Below are positions 1-6,467 of a stretch of DNA of 27,454 nucleotides, piece by piece. Origin of the DNA: a virus (Duplodnaviria > Heunggongvirae > Uroviricota > Caudoviricetes); IMG/VR virus record IMGVR_UViG_2531839332_000012; one strand, written 5' to 3'. Positions within the stretch are counted from its first letter, which is position 1. Every line of letters begins with the position of its first letter. Made by a program: the position numbers and the translations under genes. The notes beneath the pieces are model-generated. The model did not search any database. It saw only the letters and a list, made by a program, of their open reading frames with translations, and was not told where the DNA came from.

Positions 1-634
1 TGAACTTCGTTTCTTTCTGTTAATAGCCTTAGGGGTGATCATTGTTACCTCTTTCCAGGTCTGGCATATAGGTATGTATGACTTGCATGGAAGTTTTATT
101 CATTCGTTTTTTCTTGCCAGCTCCATGCTCACTGATAATGGTTTAGCTACGCAGGATTATGCAAGTTGGCCCACGCACACGATAGTGTTTTTGCTGTTGT
201 CAAGTTTCTTTGGGGGATGTATAGGTTCAACTTGTGGTGGAATTAAGTCACTTCGATTTCTTATACTTTTCAAACAAAGCAAACACGAGATAAATCAGCT
301 TTCTCATCCCAGAGCGTTGTTGAGTGTAAATGTAGGAGGGAAGATAGTTACAGATCGTGTAATGAGGTCTGTATGGAGTTTCTTTTTTCTTTATACTCTC
401 TTCACGGTGTTTTTTATACTGGTGTTAAATGGTATGGGATATGATTTTCTTACATCATTTGCAACAGTGGCTGCATGTATTAATAATATGGGATTAGGTT
501 TTGGGGCTACTGCATCGTCATTCGGAGTGCTTAATGACATTGCAAAATGTTTAATGTGCATAGCTATGATTCTTGGTCGCCTTGAAATTTATCCTGTTAT
601 TATATTGTTTTCAGGTTTTTTTTGGCGCTCCTAA
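1..634 (+). CDS. trkG: Trk-family K+ uptake membrane protein, C-terminal part (5' end lies outside the window)
   Basis: The open frame runs from the window start to a stop at 632-634 (ORF track 35..634). The product is hydrophobic and carries a TrkH/TrkG-type motif GGCIGSTCGGIKSLRF. trkG is known to sit inside the Rac prophage of E. coli K-12, matching the phage genes downstream. Confidence 0.75.
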   Translation, partial: ELRFFLLIALGVIIVTSFQVWHIGMYDLHGSFIHSFFLASSMLTDNGLATQDYASWPTHTIVFLLLSSFFGGCIGSTCGGIKSLRFLILFKQSKHEINQLSHPRALLSVNVGGKIVTDRVMRSVWSFFFLYTLFTVFFILVLNGMGYDFLTSFATVAACINNMGLGFGATASSFGVLNDIAKCLMCIAMILGRLEIYPVIILFSGFFWRS

Positions 635-771: not shown

Positions 772-1566
772 ATGAGCGAGAAATTAAAGATAGTCTATCG
801 CCCATTACAAGAATTGTCACCGTATGCGCACAACGCCAGGACGCACAGCCCTGAGCAGGTGGCACAACTGGTAGAAAGTATTAAGCAATTCGGCTGGACT
901 AATCCGGTGCTGATTGACGAAAAGGGCGAAATTATTGCGGGTCACGGTCGTGTTATGGCGGCTGAAATGCTCAAAATGGATTCTGTTCCGGTCATTGTTC
1001 TGTCTGGCCTGACGGATGAGCAGAAAAAGGCGTACCGCCTGGCAGATAATCGCCTGCCGATGAATGCTGGCTGGGATGAAGATCTGTTGCGGATGGAGCT
1101 GTCGGACCTAATCAATGCTGATTTTGATGTCTCCCTGACAGGCTTCATCCCGACAGAAATTGATGAACTGTTGACGGATGTTTTGCCCGGTACAGGAAAT
1201 GAGGAGGAGCCGTATACGACGAAAATTGATACGCCTGTTTATGAGCCGTCGGGCGGTAAACCGGATATCAGTGAACTGTACGACGATACGAAAACTCAGG
1301 AGCTGATCAGCCGGATACGTTCGGCGTCCCTTGATCCTGATATTGAGAAATTCCTCCTGTGTGCGGCAGAACGTCACACAGTGTTTAATTTCAGCAGAAT
1401 TGCGGACTATTACGCTCATGCCCCCGCTGAAATTCAGTGCCTTTTCGAGGAGTCGGCGCTGGTGATCATTGATTATCAGCAGGCTATTGAAAATGGATTT
1501 GTCCGAATGACGCAGCGCATGGTGGAGATCATGCATGGCGGGGAGGAGGAGGAGGAATATGCGTGA
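772..1566 (+). CDS. ParB-like nuclease domain (ParB/Srx N-terminal domain) phage protein with an uncharacterised C-terminal domain
   Basis: 264-aa ORF. The N-terminus (YRPLQELSPYAHNARTHSPEQVAQLVESIKQFGWTNPVLIDEKGEIIAGHGRVMAA) fits the ParB N-terminal fold. The C-terminus ends in a poly-Glu tail (GGEEEEEYA). Its stop overlaps the next start (ATGCGTGA). Confidence 0.8.
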   Translation: MSEKLKIVYRPLQELSPYAHNARTHSPEQVAQLVESIKQFGWTNPVLIDEKGEIIAGHGRVMAAEMLKMDSVPVIVLSGLTDEQKKAYRLADNRLPMNAGWDEDLLRMELSDLINADFDVSLTGFIPTEIDELLTDVLPGTGNEEEPYTTKIDTPVYEPSGGKPDISELYDDTKTQELISRIRSASLDPDIEKFLLCAAERHTVFNFSRIADYYAHAPAEIQCLFEESALVIIDYQQAIENGFVRMTQRMVEIMHGGEEEEEYA

Positions 1567-2491
1567 TGATTTTTGCGCCTTTATTCTGACTCACGGGCGA
1601 CCGGACAAAGTTCTGACTTACCGGACGTTGCGTCGTGCTGGCTATACCGGGAAAATTTTTATCGTTGTTGATGATGAAGATAAGACACGGCATCAGTACA
1701 TGGCTGAATTTGGTGAACAGGTGCTGGTATTTTCCAAAGCCGATATTGCCAGTCGTTTTGACGAAGCCGATAATTTTGGTGATCGCCGCTCAATTTTTTA
1801 CGCCCGTAATGCCTGTTTCGACCTGGCAAAACTGGTCGGGTGTAAATACTTCATTCAGCTCGATGATGATTATCACGAGTTCCAGTTTCGGGTGGATCGC
1901 AACTATGACCAGGCCTATTTCCCGATAAGGAAACTGGATGCGATCCTTTCTGAAATGCTGGCGTATTACGAATCAATACCCGCGCTTTCCATCGCTATGT
2001 CGCAGGGCGGGGATTTTCTTGGTGACAATGGCGGCCATGCTTCGTGGGTGAAACGCAAGGCAATGAACAGCTTTATCTGTTCGGTTGATCGACCGTTCTC
2101 ATTCATGGGGCGCATTAACGAGGATGTGAATACGTACACGAATCTCGGTCGCTGTGGTGAATTGTTTATGACGATCGGTGCTGTCCAGTTAGGGCAGAAA
2201 CAGACGCAGAAAAACAGCGGCGGAATGACCGAGCTGTATCTGGATTCCGGAACCTACGTTAAAAGTTTTTACTCCGTCATGTATTCGCCGTCGTGCGTAA
2301 AAATCTCACTGATGGGTGCCAGCCATAAACGCATTCACCATCAGGTCACCTGGAACAACGCTGCAGTAAAAATCCTTCACGAAAAATACAGGAAGAAGAC
2401 ACCCTGCATATCAATGGGGGTGACAAATGATTCCGTATTCGAAAGTCGAGTCTCTGGCAGCGTGCCGGATGACTGCACAACAAATCGCTGA
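1559..2491 (+). CDS. Putative GT-A-fold (DXD motif) glycosyltransferase-like phage protein; function unknown
   Basis: ATG at 1559 is preceded by GGAGGAGGAGGAGGAA and overlaps the upstream stop. The product has an N-terminal strand CAFILTHGRPD, acidic IVVDDEDK, and a DXD-like FIQLDDDY motif typical of nucleotide-sugar transferases. The fold assignment is from motifs only. Confidence 0.6.
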   Translation: MRDDFCAFILTHGRPDKVLTYRTLRRAGYTGKIFIVVDDEDKTRHQYMAEFGEQVLVFSKADIASRFDEADNFGDRRSIFYARNACFDLAKLVGCKYFIQLDDDYHEFQFRVDRNYDQAYFPIRKLDAILSEMLAYYESIPALSIAMSQGGDFLGDNGGHASWVKRKAMNSFICSVDRPFSFMGRINEDVNTYTNLGRCGELFMTIGAVQLGQKQTQKNSGGMTELYLDSGTYVKSFYSVMYSPSCVKISLMGASHKRIHHQVTWNNAAVKILHEKYRKKTPCISMGVTNDSVFESRVSGSVPDDCTTNR

Positions 2492-2678
2492 CGTTCTGGA
2501 TGTTGATCTGAACCGACTGAAAGAAAATCGGGAAGCAATGACAGATTTTTATGCGGCCATCCGTAAGGGCAGAGCGAAAGGTGAAGCCGAGTTACGAGCG
2601 GCATTGTTTAAGCTTGCCAGAAAAGGGGATGCCTTTGCTCTGCGCGAACTACTCAGGGTGGATAAAAATCAGGACTAA
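2427..2678 (+). CDS. Small hypothetical protein (83 aa), possibly helix-turn-helix-like
   Basis: ORF with GGGGGTGA upstream of ATG 2427. An alternative start is ATG 2469. It overlaps the 3' end of the upstream gene and ends 3 nt before the terminase small subunit start. The product is Ala/Arg/Lys-rich and helical. Confidence 0.5.
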   Translation: MIPYSKVESLAACRMTAQQIADVLDVDLNRLKENREAMTDFYAAIRKGRAKGEAELRAALFKLARKGDAFALRELLRVDKNQD

Positions 2679-2681
2679 CTG

Positions 2682-3776
2682 ATGAGCAGACCGGACTGGG
2701 GGGCGTTGCAGCAGGAGTATATTGCTGAATACACCCGCTCCGGTATATCTCCGGTGGCATGGTGTGAAGCAAGGGGACTGAACTACGCAACAGCCCGTCG
2801 TTACATCAAAAAAACTCCGAAAAATGCGCAGAAAGAAATGCGCAAAACTGCGCAAAAAAGTGCGCGAAAAAAAACTGCGCAGACTGCGCAAAGGCAGAAC
2901 AGAAAATCTCAGAAAAAAAAGGCTGTATCCGATGCACTCCTGATTGAGGGGGACACGGAAGAAATTTCGTTCTGCCCCGATGAATTCGGTATTTCTGACC
3001 AGCAGGCAAAATTCGCCATGTTGGTTGCTCAGGGGAAAAAGCCGACAGAGGCATACCGACTGGCTGGTTATGAGGGGCAAGGTGCGACAGCTAACAGCAA
3101 CGCCAGCCGTATGCTTAGAAATGCCAGGGTTTATCGTGCTATCAGCTACTTCCGCAATCAGTACCAGAAACGCTATACCGCAGACCTGGATTTACTGGTG
3201 AGCCAGTTGATGGCCATTGTCCAGGCCGACCCCAATCAGTTGGCACAATTTCGCCGTGTTAACTGCCGTTATTGCTGGGGCGAGAATCATCTCTACCAGT
3301 GGCGTGATATTGCAGAATTCGATAAGGCTGCGGCACAGGCCTCCAGAGATGGTAAACCCGAGCCGGAATATGGAGGCCTCGGCTTTGTTGATAACGCCAT
3401 ACCCAATCCTGATTGCCCGAAGTGCTGCGGTGAGGGAACAGGACAGCTTTATATGGCTGATACCACACTGCTTGATGGGGATGCGCGGCAATTATATGCA
3501 GGGTCAAAGCTCGGAAAATACGGTGTTGAGATCCTGCTGGAGGATAAGGCTGCCGCCCGGCGTGAATTGTTGCGTTTGCTTTCTGCTGGCGGGGCATTAT
3601 GTGCAGATAAGCGGCTACAGGAACTGGAAATTGAACGGCGCAGAATAGAGAACCAGAAGCTGCGCAAAGAGATCGAAACGGTGGAGGATAATGAACATCC
3701 CCAGCCTGTGGCGATCAATATTAATGTGGTTGATGCCAGATTAAGGAGTGATGAAGATGATCTCTCCGACGCTTAA
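2682..3776 (+). CDS. Terminase small subunit (Terminase_2-like) with extra N-terminal basic repeat and C-terminal Cys-rich segment
   Basis: 364 aa. It has an N-terminal HTH-like segment (GISPVAWCEARGLNYATARRYI) and a second HTH motif AYRLAGYEGQGATANSNASRMLRNARVYRAI characteristic of small terminase subunits. It sits immediately upstream of and overlaps the large terminase gene. Confidence 0.8.
   Translation: MSRPDWGALQQEYIAEYTRSGISPVAWCEARGLNYATARRYIKKTPKNAQKEMRKTAQKSARKKTAQTAQRQNRKSQKKKAVSDALLIEGDTEEISFCPDEFGISDQQAKFAMLVAQGKKPTEAYRLAGYEGQGATANSNASRMLRNARVYRAISYFRNQYQKRYTADLDLLVSQLMAIVQADPNQLAQFRRVNCRYCWGENHLYQWRDIAEFDKAAAQASRDGKPEPEYGGLGFVDNAIPNPDCPKCCGEGTGQLYMADTTLLDGDARQLYAGSKLGKYGVEILLEDKAAARRELLRLLSAGGALCADKRLQELEIERRRIENQKLRKEIETVEDNEHPQPVAININVVDARLRSDEDDLSDA
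2821..2893 (+). repeat. Cluster of six TGCGC(A/G) direct repeats inside the 5' part of the small terminase gene (candidate pac / TerS-binding site)
   Basis: TGCGCA occurs at 2825, 2839, 2849, 2876 and 2885, and TGCGCG at 2861, spaced 9-15 nt apart. The same region encodes the basic repeat KNAQKEMRKTAQKSARKKTAQTAQRQ. Confidence 0.4.
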
Positions 3777-5058
3777 TGTGCCTCAGGCGCGATTTCTTTC
3801 AATGCCCCATAAATTTAAAGCCTATATTGCTGGTTTTGGCTCGGGCAAAACATGGGTTGGGTGTGGCGGCATATGCAAGGGGATTTGGGAGCATCCAGGT
3901 ATAAATCAGGGATATTTTGCGCCAACGTATCCCCAAATTCGCGATATTTTTTACCCTACAGTGGAAGAAGTTGCTGCTGACTGGGGATTGAACGTAAAAA
4001 TTAATGAGGGAAATAAAGAGGTTCACTTTTATTACGGACGCCAGTATCGGGGAACCACTATCTGCAGATCGATGGAGAAGCCACAAACGATCGTCGGTTT
4101 CAAAATTGGTAATGCGCTGGTGGATGAACTGGACATTTTGCCGAAGGAAAAAGCCAGAACGGCGTGGCGCAAGATAATTGCGCGTATGCGTTATAAGATT
4201 GATGGACTTCGCAACGGTATTGACGTTACAACCACGCCGGAAGGATTCAAATTTGTCTACGAGCAGTTTGTTAAAGCCGTGCGTGAAAAAACAGATCTGG
4301 CCTCACTGTATGGTCTGGTGCAGGCATCTACTTTCGATAATGAAAAGAACCTGCCAGCAGATTACATTCCTTCACTTCTTGAATCATACCCTCCAGAGCT
4401 GATTAAAGCCTATCTTCTAGGACGGTTTACTAACCTGACAAGTGGTACTGTTTACCATCAGTTTGACCGGAAACTGAATAATTGCGAAGAAGTGGAGCAG
4501 CCAGGGGAGCCGATTTATATTGGGATGGATTTTAACGTTGGAAAGATGGCGGGAATCGTCCATGTGCTGCGTTTGGGGCTTCCATGTGCGGTAACTGAAA
4601 TCATCAATGCCTACGATACGCCGGATATGATCCGCCTCATTAAAGAACGCTTCTGGCTGTATGACGGGCATGATTACCGGAAAGTGAGGGAGATTTATAT
4701 TTATCCAGATGCTTCCGGAGATTCCAGAAAATCAAGTAACGCAAGTACGACGGATATAGCCCAGCTTAAGCAGGCAGGTTTTAACGTTGTGGTGAACAGC
4801 TCGAACCCGCCAGTAAAAGATCGCGTTAACTCAATGAATGCAATGTTCTGCAATGCCAATGGTGAGCGTCGCTATAAAGTTAATGTGAAGCGTTGTCCGG
4901 TATATGCCGAATCTCTGGAGCAACAGGTCTGGGATGATAAGGGGGAGCCTGATAAAAAATCTGGCAATGATCACCCGAATGATGCCGGAGGTTATTTCAT
5001 CGTTAAGCAATTCCCTATTGTCAAACCGACCGGAAGAGTCACATCACTTCGGATTTAA
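3757..5058 (+). CDS. Terminase large subunit
   Basis: Walker A-like GFGSGKTW near the N-terminus; a ~435-aa protein directly after the small terminase. The start is ambiguous (GTG 3748, ATG 3751, ATG 3757). AAGGAG at 3743-3748 favours ATG 3757 by spacing. Confidence 0.85.
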   Translation: MISPTLNVPQARFLSMPHKFKAYIAGFGSGKTWVGCGGICKGIWEHPGINQGYFAPTYPQIRDIFYPTVEEVAADWGLNVKINEGNKEVHFYYGRQYRGTTICRSMEKPQTIVGFKIGNALVDELDILPKEKARTAWRKIIARMRYKIDGLRNGIDVTTTPEGFKFVYEQFVKAVREKTDLASLYGLVQASTFDNEKNLPADYIPSLLESYPPELIKAYLLGRFTNLTSGTVYHQFDRKLNNCEEVEQPGEPIYIGMDFNVGKMAGIVHVLRLGLPCAVTEIINAYDTPDMIRLIKERFWLYDGHDYRKVREIYIYPDASGDSRKSSNASTTDIAQLKQAGFNVVVNSSNPPVKDRVNSMNAMFCNANGERRYKVNVKRCPVYAESLEQQVWDDKGEPDKKSGNDHPNDAGGYFIVKQFPIVKPTGRVTSLRI

Positions 5059-5060
5059 TT

Positions 5061-6467
5061 ATGGCTGATATATCAACACCCAACCTCGACTATAACGATA
5101 TGCTGGAGGCGTGGGATATTAACGACGCATTGATGGGCGGTACGCTTGAAATGCGCAGGCAGGGGGAAAATTATCTCCCCAAATGGCCTAATGAAGATGA
5201 AGACGCTTATAAAAAACGCCTGTCTGTGGCTACGTTACTTCCTGTGTATGAAGAAAGCATCAAACAAAATATTGGGCGCATATTTGCAGAGCCGACAGTA
5301 TTGAGTGAGGAAACGCCGGAAAAAATCAGGGAATATGCAGAAAATATCGACATGGAGGGGAGCCGACTGGATGTGTGGGCGCAGCAATTTTTCAGTCTCG
5401 CATTTCAGTATGGTGTGGCACATGCGCTGGTGGACTATCCACGAACGGATATGAACGAGATTCGGACAAAAGCCGATGAAACCGCGGCCGGTGGTCGCCC
5501 GTACGTTACGATGCTGAATCCACGCCAGGTTATTGGATGGAAATCGAAAGTTGAAAAAGGGAAAGTTGTTCTCACTGATTTGCGTATAAAAGAGGTCATC
5601 ATTATTGATGGTGATGATTTCGGGCAGAAGAAGGTGGAGCAGATCCGCCATATTATGCCCCGTCGAGTAGAAATTTATCGACGCAGCGAAGGTACTAATG
5701 GCGAATCTGTCTGGATGCTTCATGAGTCATGGAATACCAGCCGTGATGATATTCCTCTGGTAACACTGTATACGAAGAAAACAGGGTTTATGCGTGGTAC
5801 ACCGCCATTGCTTAATCTTGGCTTGCTGAATATCAAGCACTGGCAAAGCCAGAGCGAGCAGGACAATATTCTTCATGTTGCCCGCGTTCCATTGCTGGTG
5901 GCCTACGGGCTGGACAGGAATGAAGAACTGACGGTTGGTGCATCCACGGCTACGATTTTTGAGGACAGAACAAAAAATGGCCTCGAATATGTTGAACATA
6001 GTGGCGCAGCGATAGAATCTGGCGAAACATCACTTGAGAAGCTGGAAAATCAGATGCGTCATGCCGGCGCTAAACTTCTGCGGGCTGAAAATACATCCAC
6101 CAAATCTGTTGATCAGACTAATGAAGAGCGGATGCAGGAACACTCGCCGCTTTATACAATGGCGAACTCCCTCGAAGATGCCCTCGATAATATTCTCCAG
6201 ATAATGGCGGAATGGAGCGGAGAGAGTTGCGGTGGCAATGTGGATGTGCGCACTGAACTGGATGTATCTGCCCAGGTGTTTGACTCATCCTCCGCGCTGG
6301 CTGTTCAGTCATTGCGTCAGGGCGGTGATATACGTCAGATTGATGCGGTTCGGGTGTTGCAGGCGTTGAAATTTATCGATCAGGATTCCCGTCCAGAGGA
6401 TGTGATCGATGAATTAAAAAATCAGAGTGTAATGTTGATGGAAATCAATGATGCAAACCGTGAATGA
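5061..6467 (+). CDS. Portal protein
   Basis: 468-aa ORF immediately after the large terminase (3-nt gap), at the conserved portal position, with an acidic C-terminus. Confidence 0.8.
   Translation: MADISTPNLDYNDMLEAWDINDALMGGTLEMRRQGENYLPKWPNEDEDAYKKRLSVATLLPVYEESIKQNIGRIFAEPTVLSEETPEKIREYAENIDMEGSRLDVWAQQFFSLAFQYGVAHALVDYPRTDMNEIRTKADETAAGGRPYVTMLNPRQVIGWKSKVEKGKVVLTDLRIKEVIIIDGDDFGQKKVEQIRHIMPRRVEIYRRSEGTNGESVWMLHESWNTSRDDIPLVTLYTKKTGFMRGTPPLLNLGLLNIKHWQSQSEQDNILHVARVPLLVAYGLDRNEELTVGASTATIFEDRTKNGLEYVEHSGAAIESGETSLEKLENQMRHAGAKLLRAENTSTKSVDQTNEERMQEHSPLYTMANSLEDALDNILQIMAEWSGESCGGNVDVRTELDVSAQVFDSSSALAVQSLRQGGDIRQIDAVRVLQALKFIDQDSRPEDVIDELKNQSVMLMEINDANRE

Follow-up and report, generated by a model that had tools for sequence, protein, structure and literature searches.

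Repeated TGCGC(A/G) hexamers inside the small terminase gene of a Rac-type prophage as a candidate pac recognition site of the P1 type

To our knowledge, the packaging (pac) sites of only a handful of phages have been determined experimentally. In phages SPP1 and SF6 the pac region, divided into pacL, pacC and pacR, contains multiple short repeated boxes that are bound by G1P, the oligomeric small terminase subunit (TerS), in or next to its own gene. In phage P1, pac spans 161 bp of pacA; the pacase binds seven TGATCA/G repeats in it, and packaging falls about nine-fold when these repeats are destroyed by synonymous changes (PMC10028697). In the annotated P1 record, the TGATCA/G hexamers of pacA fall into two groups (+194 to +233 and +324 to +375), between which lie an integration host factor (IHF) site (+256 to +268) and the positions of pac cleavage (+275 to +285). 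The pac site of phage ES18 is still unknown (PMC11260489). Here we analyse a stretch of 27,454 nucleotides, the virus record IMGVR_UViG_2531839332_000012 of IMG/VR, which is referred to at its full length as the window and in which six TGCGC(A/G) hexamers are clustered in the small terminase gene, terS (2682-3776, plus strand). A first-pass annotation made from the letters alone had proposed this cluster as a candidate pac site built of repeated short motifs. Our comparative sequence analysis supports this proposal through the codon bias of the array, its position in about 60 species, the homology of a TerS domain with PacA and the analogy with P1, and we consider it probable that the six hexamers are a pac recognition site of the P1 type.

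The array is compact. Copies of TGCGCA start at 2825, 2839, 2849, 2876 and 2885 and a single TGCGCG starts at 2861, in agreement with the first-pass annotation, and the six hexamers occupy 66 bp (2825-2890, no strand assigned), or +144 to +209 of terS. We propose that this segment is the terminase-recognition part of pac. The start-to-start distances are 14, 10, 12, 15 and 9 nt, with a mean of 12; the spacing had been called roughly helical, which holds only loosely, since the spacings across relatives range from 7 to 16 nt and keep no strict phase. The flanks are A-rich, giving an extended consensus of approximately AAAAc-TGCGCA-rAA. The same DNA encodes the peptide KNAQKEMRKTAQKSARKKTAQTAQRQ, residues 47-72 of the 364-residue open reading frame (ORF) 2682-3776, and the basic repeat reported earlier is thus correctly translated. 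Five of the hexamers are read as xxT-GCG-CAx (Ala-Gln), while the copy at 2839 lies in another frame and is read as aTG-CGC-Aaa (Met-Arg-Lys). Tandem Repeats Finder detects only an irregular 12-nt period in the array, with 74% matches and 19% indels, and such a ragged period indicates that the array is not a clean recent tandem duplication. No second hexamer cluster exists in the window, even when one mismatch is allowed.

Neither base composition nor the encoded peptide explains this cluster. TGCGCR occurs 22 times on the plus strand of the whole window, and outside the array every 80-bp span contains at most one copy. In 300 first-order Markov simulations the maximum per 80 bp was 1-3 TGCGCR, compared with six observed, and the Poisson expectation of such a cluster in the whole window is about 8e-7. 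Under a stricter null, in which the peptide was fixed and synonymous codons were redrawn from the codon usage of the phage genes of the window, the array peptide yielded about 0.6 hexamers on average, and six were not reached once in 200,000 trials. All five Ala codons in the array are GCG, against a GCG usage of 25% in the phage ORFs of the window, and each of them follows a codon ending in T. The resampling result, this uniform GCG/T bias and the hexamer in a different frame together argue that the array is neither a product of chance nor a by-product of the protein, and it is almost certainly a DNA-level element under selection. The suggestion that the DNA does double duty, coding for protein and serving as a DNA site, is borne out by the same resampling and codon bias and by the use of three frames in relatives. 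As a separate observation, TGCGCA with at most one mismatch is rarer in the whole window than in shuffled sequence (150 versus 191.6 +/- 12.6), every shuffle having at least 150; either avoidance of pseudo-pac words or an ordinary bias in oligonucleotide usage may lie behind this.

Conservation across relatives was assessed in loci fetched with an alignment of the TerS N-terminal domain, 80 from viral contigs and 80 from genomes at one per species; the statistics given here come from the 78 usable genome loci, which are Enterobacterales plus one Vibrio and amount to 480 kb. Counted in 100-bp bins from the TerS start, TGCGCA occurs 291 times at +100, 47 times at +200 and 70 times at +300, over a background of about 3, and all 74 clusters of at least three TGCGCA in the 480 kb lie in the 5' part of the TerS gene. 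Arrays are found at the same TerS position in about 60 species, and array-bearing relatives come from Klebsiella, Salmonella, Serratia, Proteus, Providencia, Xenorhabdus, Pantoea, Vibrio and Pasteurella. Synonymous resampling of the 78 loci predicts 38.6 hexamers where 294 are observed, and these are distributed over all three reading frames (219, 58 and 17). The first-pass annotation had named conservation at synonymous sites of homologous terS genes as a way to check the array, and the outcome is strongly positive: in Ala-Gln dipeptides of the arrays the Ala codon is GCG in 196 of 204 cases and is preceded by T in 199 of 204, whereas elsewhere in the same genes the figures are 42 and 27 of 82. 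Likewise, 88% of the GCGC tetramers within arrays stand in the full TGCGCA context, compared with 7.9% elsewhere. Diverged TerS genes that share only the N-terminal residues, about 44 of them, have the same hexamer at the same place. Individual relatives illustrate the pattern, such as Klebsiella phage ST11-VIM1phi8.2 with six TGCGCA that use three frames, and the prophage of E. coli VE-F5 with eight TGCGCA and one TGCGCG. Relatives in which Met, Val and Leu alternate at one position keep NTG-CGC there. In the Klebsiella-type subfamily the first cluster is followed, some 170 bp further downstream, by a second one of two to three TGCGCA (about +347 to +397 in many genome loci; 2802-2845 in locus L001), which lies within the coding region of the Terminase_2 domain, again uses two frames and is absent from the subfamily of the window.

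Another finding from the relatives is that the DNA word itself changes with the terminase. Loci without TGCGCA carry TGCGAA/TTCGCA at the same position, often as the 12-bp palindrome TGCGAATTCGCA. The helix of the N-terminal helix-turn-helix (HTH) domain reads A-K-R-[YH]-I-K in the TGCGAA clade and A-R-R-[YH]-I-K in its sister, the TGCGCA clade. Among the loci of the first scans, every ARR[YH]IK protein is accompanied by TGCGCA with almost no TGCGAA, and every AKR[YH]IK protein by TGCGAA/TTCGCA with almost no TGCGCA, a split that is complete in both directions except for a few decayed or disrupted copies with one or two sites. The TGCGCA type occurs in Escherichia, Klebsiella, Proteus, Xenorhabdus and Vibrio, and the TGCGAA type in Serratia, Kosakonia, Yersinia and Pasteurella. 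Pasteurella phage Pmp11, with the helix AKRYIK, has nine TGCGAA read as TGC-GAA (peptide NCE), and enterobacterial loci read the same word as GCG-AAT (peptide ANSQ); such retention of a DNA word under a changed peptide is hard to explain except by selection at the DNA level. Vibrio phage douglas 12A4, with the helix ARRYIK, carries CTGCGCAA repeats, and the Vibrio and Pasteurella phages have two clusters each.

These observations bear directly on a purely protein-level explanation, according to which the array is a basic repeat (K-T-A-Q-K) made by slippage, functioning as a flexible linker, and the DNA repeat is its passive by-product. The repetitive basic peptide, the repeat-mediated indels, the low structural confidence of this segment and the period of about 12 nt given by Tandem Repeats Finder are all compatible with it. 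However, it is already contradicted by the occurrence of the hexamer in three reading frames, by GCG and a preceding T in 96-98% of array Ala-Gln dipeptides against 51% and 33% elsewhere, by the two peptides, ANSQ and NCE, that TGCGAA encodes in enterobacteria and in the Pasteurella phage, and by the alternation of Met, Val and Leu with NTG-CGC kept, so that we regard it as hardly credible.

The array also coincides with boundaries of mosaicism. The window is homologous to the prophage Rac-SA53 from 2834 onwards and to Klebsiella phages up to 2883, and the array seems to act as a joint at which the HTH module recombines with different TerS cores. Two relatives (L042 and L053) show deletions between repeats, of 9 and 27 nt, that are mediated by the repeats. 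It could accordingly be argued that the hexamers are microhomology for module shuffling, or that they are sites for some other factor, such as a host nucleoid protein, a phage regulator or a restriction/modification enzyme, given that mosaic junctions lie in or next to the array, that TGCGCA is a palindrome of the FspI type containing GCGC, and that the P1 hexamers are also methylation sites (PMC10028697). Against this, the window encodes no methyltransferase, clustered restriction targets would be counter-selected, the type of motif follows the TerS HTH clade rather than the host taxon, and any recombination at the repeats more plausibly follows from their presence. We consider both forms of this explanation very unlikely. 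A link between the HTH and the array is hinted at by Rac-SA53 itself (L003, 2500-2560), whose TerS is annotated as 'gpOterS; fusion of two genes by deletion' and has no N-terminal HTH, and whose array has decayed to two TGCGCA followed by TTCGCA, TGCGCT and TGCCCA; the joint loss is suggestive, though it is a single case.

The protein that would read these sites has a modular structure. The complete 364-residue product of terS matches Pfam Terminase_2 (PF03592, 36.5 bits against a cutoff of 26.1, E=9e-9) and phrog_51 (E=7e-75), is named 'terminase small subunit' in RefSeq and is encoded directly upstream of the large terminase (TerL) and portal genes, which confirms that the array lies inside the 5' part of a small terminase gene. 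Residues 1-44 (...WCEARGLNYATARRYIKK), encoded by 2682-2813 on the plus strand, form a PacA-like N-terminal HTH that we propose as the hexamer reader. Residues 45-95 (2814-2966, plus strand) are a basic linker of low structural confidence, whose coding DNA contains the array and whose length varies among homologues, and residues 122-316 (3045-3629, plus strand) make up the Terminase_2 core (PF03592) with a four-Cys insertion (CRYC...CPKCC). BLASTP aligns TerS with P1 PacA at E=0.004 over a shared ...LN-x-x-TARRY[IL][KR] motif, and hhalign aligns the TerS N-terminal domain with PacA at 86% probability (E=5e-6, 39 columns). The PacA family phrog_1711 matches residues 6-80 of TerS (E=1.5e-4), TerS and PacA both match phrog_370, and the N-terminus of PacA gives a weak match to HTH_23. 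This homology is confined to the N-terminal domain of about 40 residues, the remainder of TerS being Terminase_2 and unlike PacA. In an AlphaFold2 model, residues 1-40 fold into three helices with a predicted local distance difference test (pLDDT) score of 68-80, and the array-encoded linker scores 25-54; since the model was built from a shallow alignment and is poor overall (mean pLDDT 48.5), it was used only for the N-terminal helices and the linker. Searches of the PDB with the TerS and TerL sequences and the HTH profile returned nothing useful. Two further features of TerS were noted. The four-Cys motif CRYC ... CPKCC, inserted in the Terminase_2 domain (3264-3428, residues 195-249) and invariant in the aligned homologues, looks like a zinc ribbon. 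Many homologues (P0047, P0050 and P0065 among them) are about 95% identical over the TerS body, while their last 60 or so residues (...ELIKLIMATKGSS...) are unrelated to residues ~300-364 of the window protein, probably a swapped tail that matches a different TerL.

The proposal that the hexamers form a pac site is thus based on an array under DNA-level selection, at a conserved position, with a word that changes with the HTH clade, at the place where P1 has its pac, and on an HTH shared with PacA. In the mechanism that we envisage, TerS would combine a PacA-like N-terminal HTH, a flexible basic linker and a Terminase_2 oligomerisation core, and the DNA coding for the linker would itself carry four to six copies of the palindrome read by the HTH. 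Several HTHs of one TerS oligomer, tethered by the linker, would bind the array, either on concatemers or on prophage DNA in situ, and the array-bound TerS would recruit TerL, which would cut nearby. Headful packaging would follow, presumably with the same orientation as terS transcription and so into terL and the structural genes. P1 and P22, which package in the direction of terS transcription, provide the analogy for this last step. HTH binding, cleavage nearby, the headful mode and the direction of packaging are what we infer from these comparisons. A DNA-binding protein with sites in its own gene can also regulate itself, and the array lies 143 nt into the coding region, so the hexamers might be TerS/HTH sites of mainly regulatory function, in autoregulation or timing of terS/terL, with the actual pac recognition and cut elsewhere. 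Some homologous HTH-bearing TerS proteins have no array, which indicates that the domain can function without one nearby. However, in P1, the one homologous system that has been studied, the equivalent hexamers are the pac site, and the protein concerned here is a terminase subunit whose gene adjoins those of TerL and the portal. No promoter or operator context emerged, although none was sought. We judge a mainly regulatory role to be unlikely; regulatory and pac roles are in any case compatible and not mutually exclusive.

Several observations weigh against the hexamers being a pac recognition site of the P1 type. The array of the close E. coli subfamily contains three to six intact hexamers; site 2 often reads TGTGCA and site 6 often TGCACA, a synonymous change, and this variation fits redundancy but shows that each site is individually dispensable. 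Nine marine viral contigs with the helix NYATARRYIKL and a phrog_370-like TerS body (IMG/VR L171-L173, L175 and L181-L185), scanned on both sides, have neither a TGCGCA array nor any other clustered hexamer within 1.2 kb, and the notion that ARRYIK always implies a TGCGCA array was rejected on this ground. Because the HTH and the array are adjacent and co-inherited, the R/K split could represent few evolutionary events, and since TGATCA is the word of P1, whose helix reads ARRYLR, the hexamer is not determined by the helix motif alone. The window differs from P1 in its word, TGCGCA, which contains no GATC and so places the array outside Dam control, and in having a single cluster of six hexamers where P1 has a 4 + 3 pair (HEX4 and HEX3) flanking the cut. 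The IHF consensus WATCAANNNNTTR is not matched at 1856-5261 in a consensus scan, even at one mismatch. BLASTP finds no significant alignment between TerL and PacB; the window TerL belongs to Terminase_6N/6C, a Pfam match that PacB does not give. The rest of the window TerS is a Terminase_2 core rather than the C-terminal part of PacA, and the host element is a lambdoid Rac-type prophage rather than a plasmid prophage. With one cluster, no GATC and no IHF consensus nearby, the mechanism of P1 is not transferable wholesale, and with the different TerS body and a TerL unrelated in sequence the array, although of the P1 kind, falls outside the P1 pac family taken strictly. Prophage Gally of E. coli LF82, the single mapped E. 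coli case considered, shows a virion coverage peak inside terS, and it was rejected as indirect experimental support, as its TerS is Sf6-gp1-like and unrelated. The phage records named vB_EcoS-...R (95% match) were rejected as a source of termini because they are prophages predicted from isolates rather than virion sequences.

The setting of the gene is that of a phage packaging module. The window covers the late region of a lambdoid prophage of the Rac type that is intact, and in an E. coli chromosome that is 99.7% identical the annotated order is trkG, ynaK, a GREB1-related glycosyltransferase, a small ORF and the small and large terminase subunits, followed by the portal, head and tail genes, tfaR and pinR. 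The TerL gene (3748-5058, plus strand; Terminase_6N/6C) overlaps the end of terS and encodes the enzyme expected to cut near the array; its nearest phage relatives are Jersey-like, Dhillonvirus and Kagunavirus siphophages at 40-52% identity. The portal gene (DUF4055) follows at 5061-6467 on the plus strand. The 5' region of terS is present in 896 of 5,426 complete E. coli genomes, under the same RefSeq name, and 193 genomes, E. coli CFSAN061771 among them, match at 99% identity or more. At the left end, 35-634 (plus strand) encodes the C-terminal portion of trkG, a Rac moron for K+ transport, and thereby marks the element as a Rac-type prophage of full length; in E. coli K-12 the structural genes of this prophage have been deleted. 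A short distance before the packaging genes lie a ynaK-like ORF with a ParB_N domain (772-1566, plus strand) and a TET-associated glycosyltransferase (1535-2491, plus strand; PF20691, E=6e-35), the one labelled 'GREB1-related' in RefSeq, and no TET or methyltransferase partner is encoded within the window. Immediately before terS, an 83-residue ORF (2427-2678, plus strand), for which RefSeq has a 69-residue hypothetical protein, matches positions 145-218 of phrog_309 (E=8e-23) and no Pfam family. The family phrog_309 is a small-terminase family different from that of terS, and this ORF may be what remains of another TerS or an accessory derived from one.

Similar repeats in another terminase were also noticed. 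The TerS of the Shiga toxin (Stx)-converting Escherichia phage vB_EcoP_phi346, which is of the Stx/933W type (locus L165), has a homologous HTH with the sequence NYNTARTRIKM, and after it, at 1639-1690, four copies of a 12-nt tandem unit, ATCGATCATGAA, precede two TGCGCA. The unit represents YGATCA, includes GATC and encodes the peptide IDHE/TDHE, and we regard these repeats as a candidate P1-like, Dam-containing pac array in Stx phages. On a broader scale we speculate, tentatively, that P1 pac and PacA are one member of a large unrecognised class, in which a portable PacA-like HTH of about 40 residues sits on unrelated TerS cores (Terminase_2, phrog_370 and PacA) and the DNA of the linker carries a pac array whose word differs among lineages: TGATCA in P1, YGATCA in the Stx/933W type, TGCGCA in the Rac, Klebsiella and Vibrio types and TGCGAA in the AKRYIK types. 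The rule proposed to connect helix and hexamer is that R39 versus K39 tracks base 5, C versus A. Targeted full-text searches of open-access papers and bioRxiv returned no earlier description of TGCGCA arrays or of a PacA-like domain in Rac-type or related terminases. If the class is real, pac sites and packaging specificity would be readable, and perhaps re-programmable, from sequence in a sizeable fraction of enterobacterial prophages. For the present prophage, an array acting as pac would fix the origin of in situ packaging and hence the chromosomal flank mobilised by Rac-type lateral transduction, which, by analogy with P1 and P22, would extend rightwards towards the tail genes, pinR and ompN in the strain of 99.7% identity. 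It would furthermore offer a cassette of about 70 bp for phagemids or transducing particles, and the ARRYIK/TGCGCA and AKRYIK/TGCGAA combinations would constitute a natural matched protein-DNA pair for dissecting how small terminases read DNA.

Comparison with other described systems helps to place the array. Phage lambda has repeated sites for the N-terminal HTH of the acting protein, namely the R sites of cosB, which are bound by gpNu1 together with IHF, and the ori iterons inside gene O, which are embedded in the gene of their own protein. However, these serve cos ends or replication rather than headful packaging, their repeats are longer and the protein families are unrelated. P22, with its 22-bp pac in gene 3, and Sf6/Gally resemble the arrangement proposed here in that a headful enterobacterial temperate phage has its pac inside the small-terminase gene, but in both the site is single and asymmetric instead of an array of hexamers, and the TerS family is unrelated. 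SPP1/SF6 share the TerS core family, since G1P of SPP1 is also a Terminase_2 protein. In contrast to the window, the SPP1 boxes have another sequence and lie on both sides of the cut, and G1P uses the HTH of Terminase_2 without a PacA-like extra domain. P1 shares with the window a palindromic TGNNCA hexamer that is repeated and can end in A or G, its location in the 5' part of the small-terminase gene just after the HTH-coding segment (+194 to +380 in pacA), a mean hexamer spacing of 11-12 bp, a coding sequence bent to carry the sites, and a homologous N-terminal HTH with the signature LN-x-x-TARRY-[IL]-[KR], and the two-cluster layout of the Klebsiella-type relatives further resembles the HEX4/HEX3 arrangement of P1.

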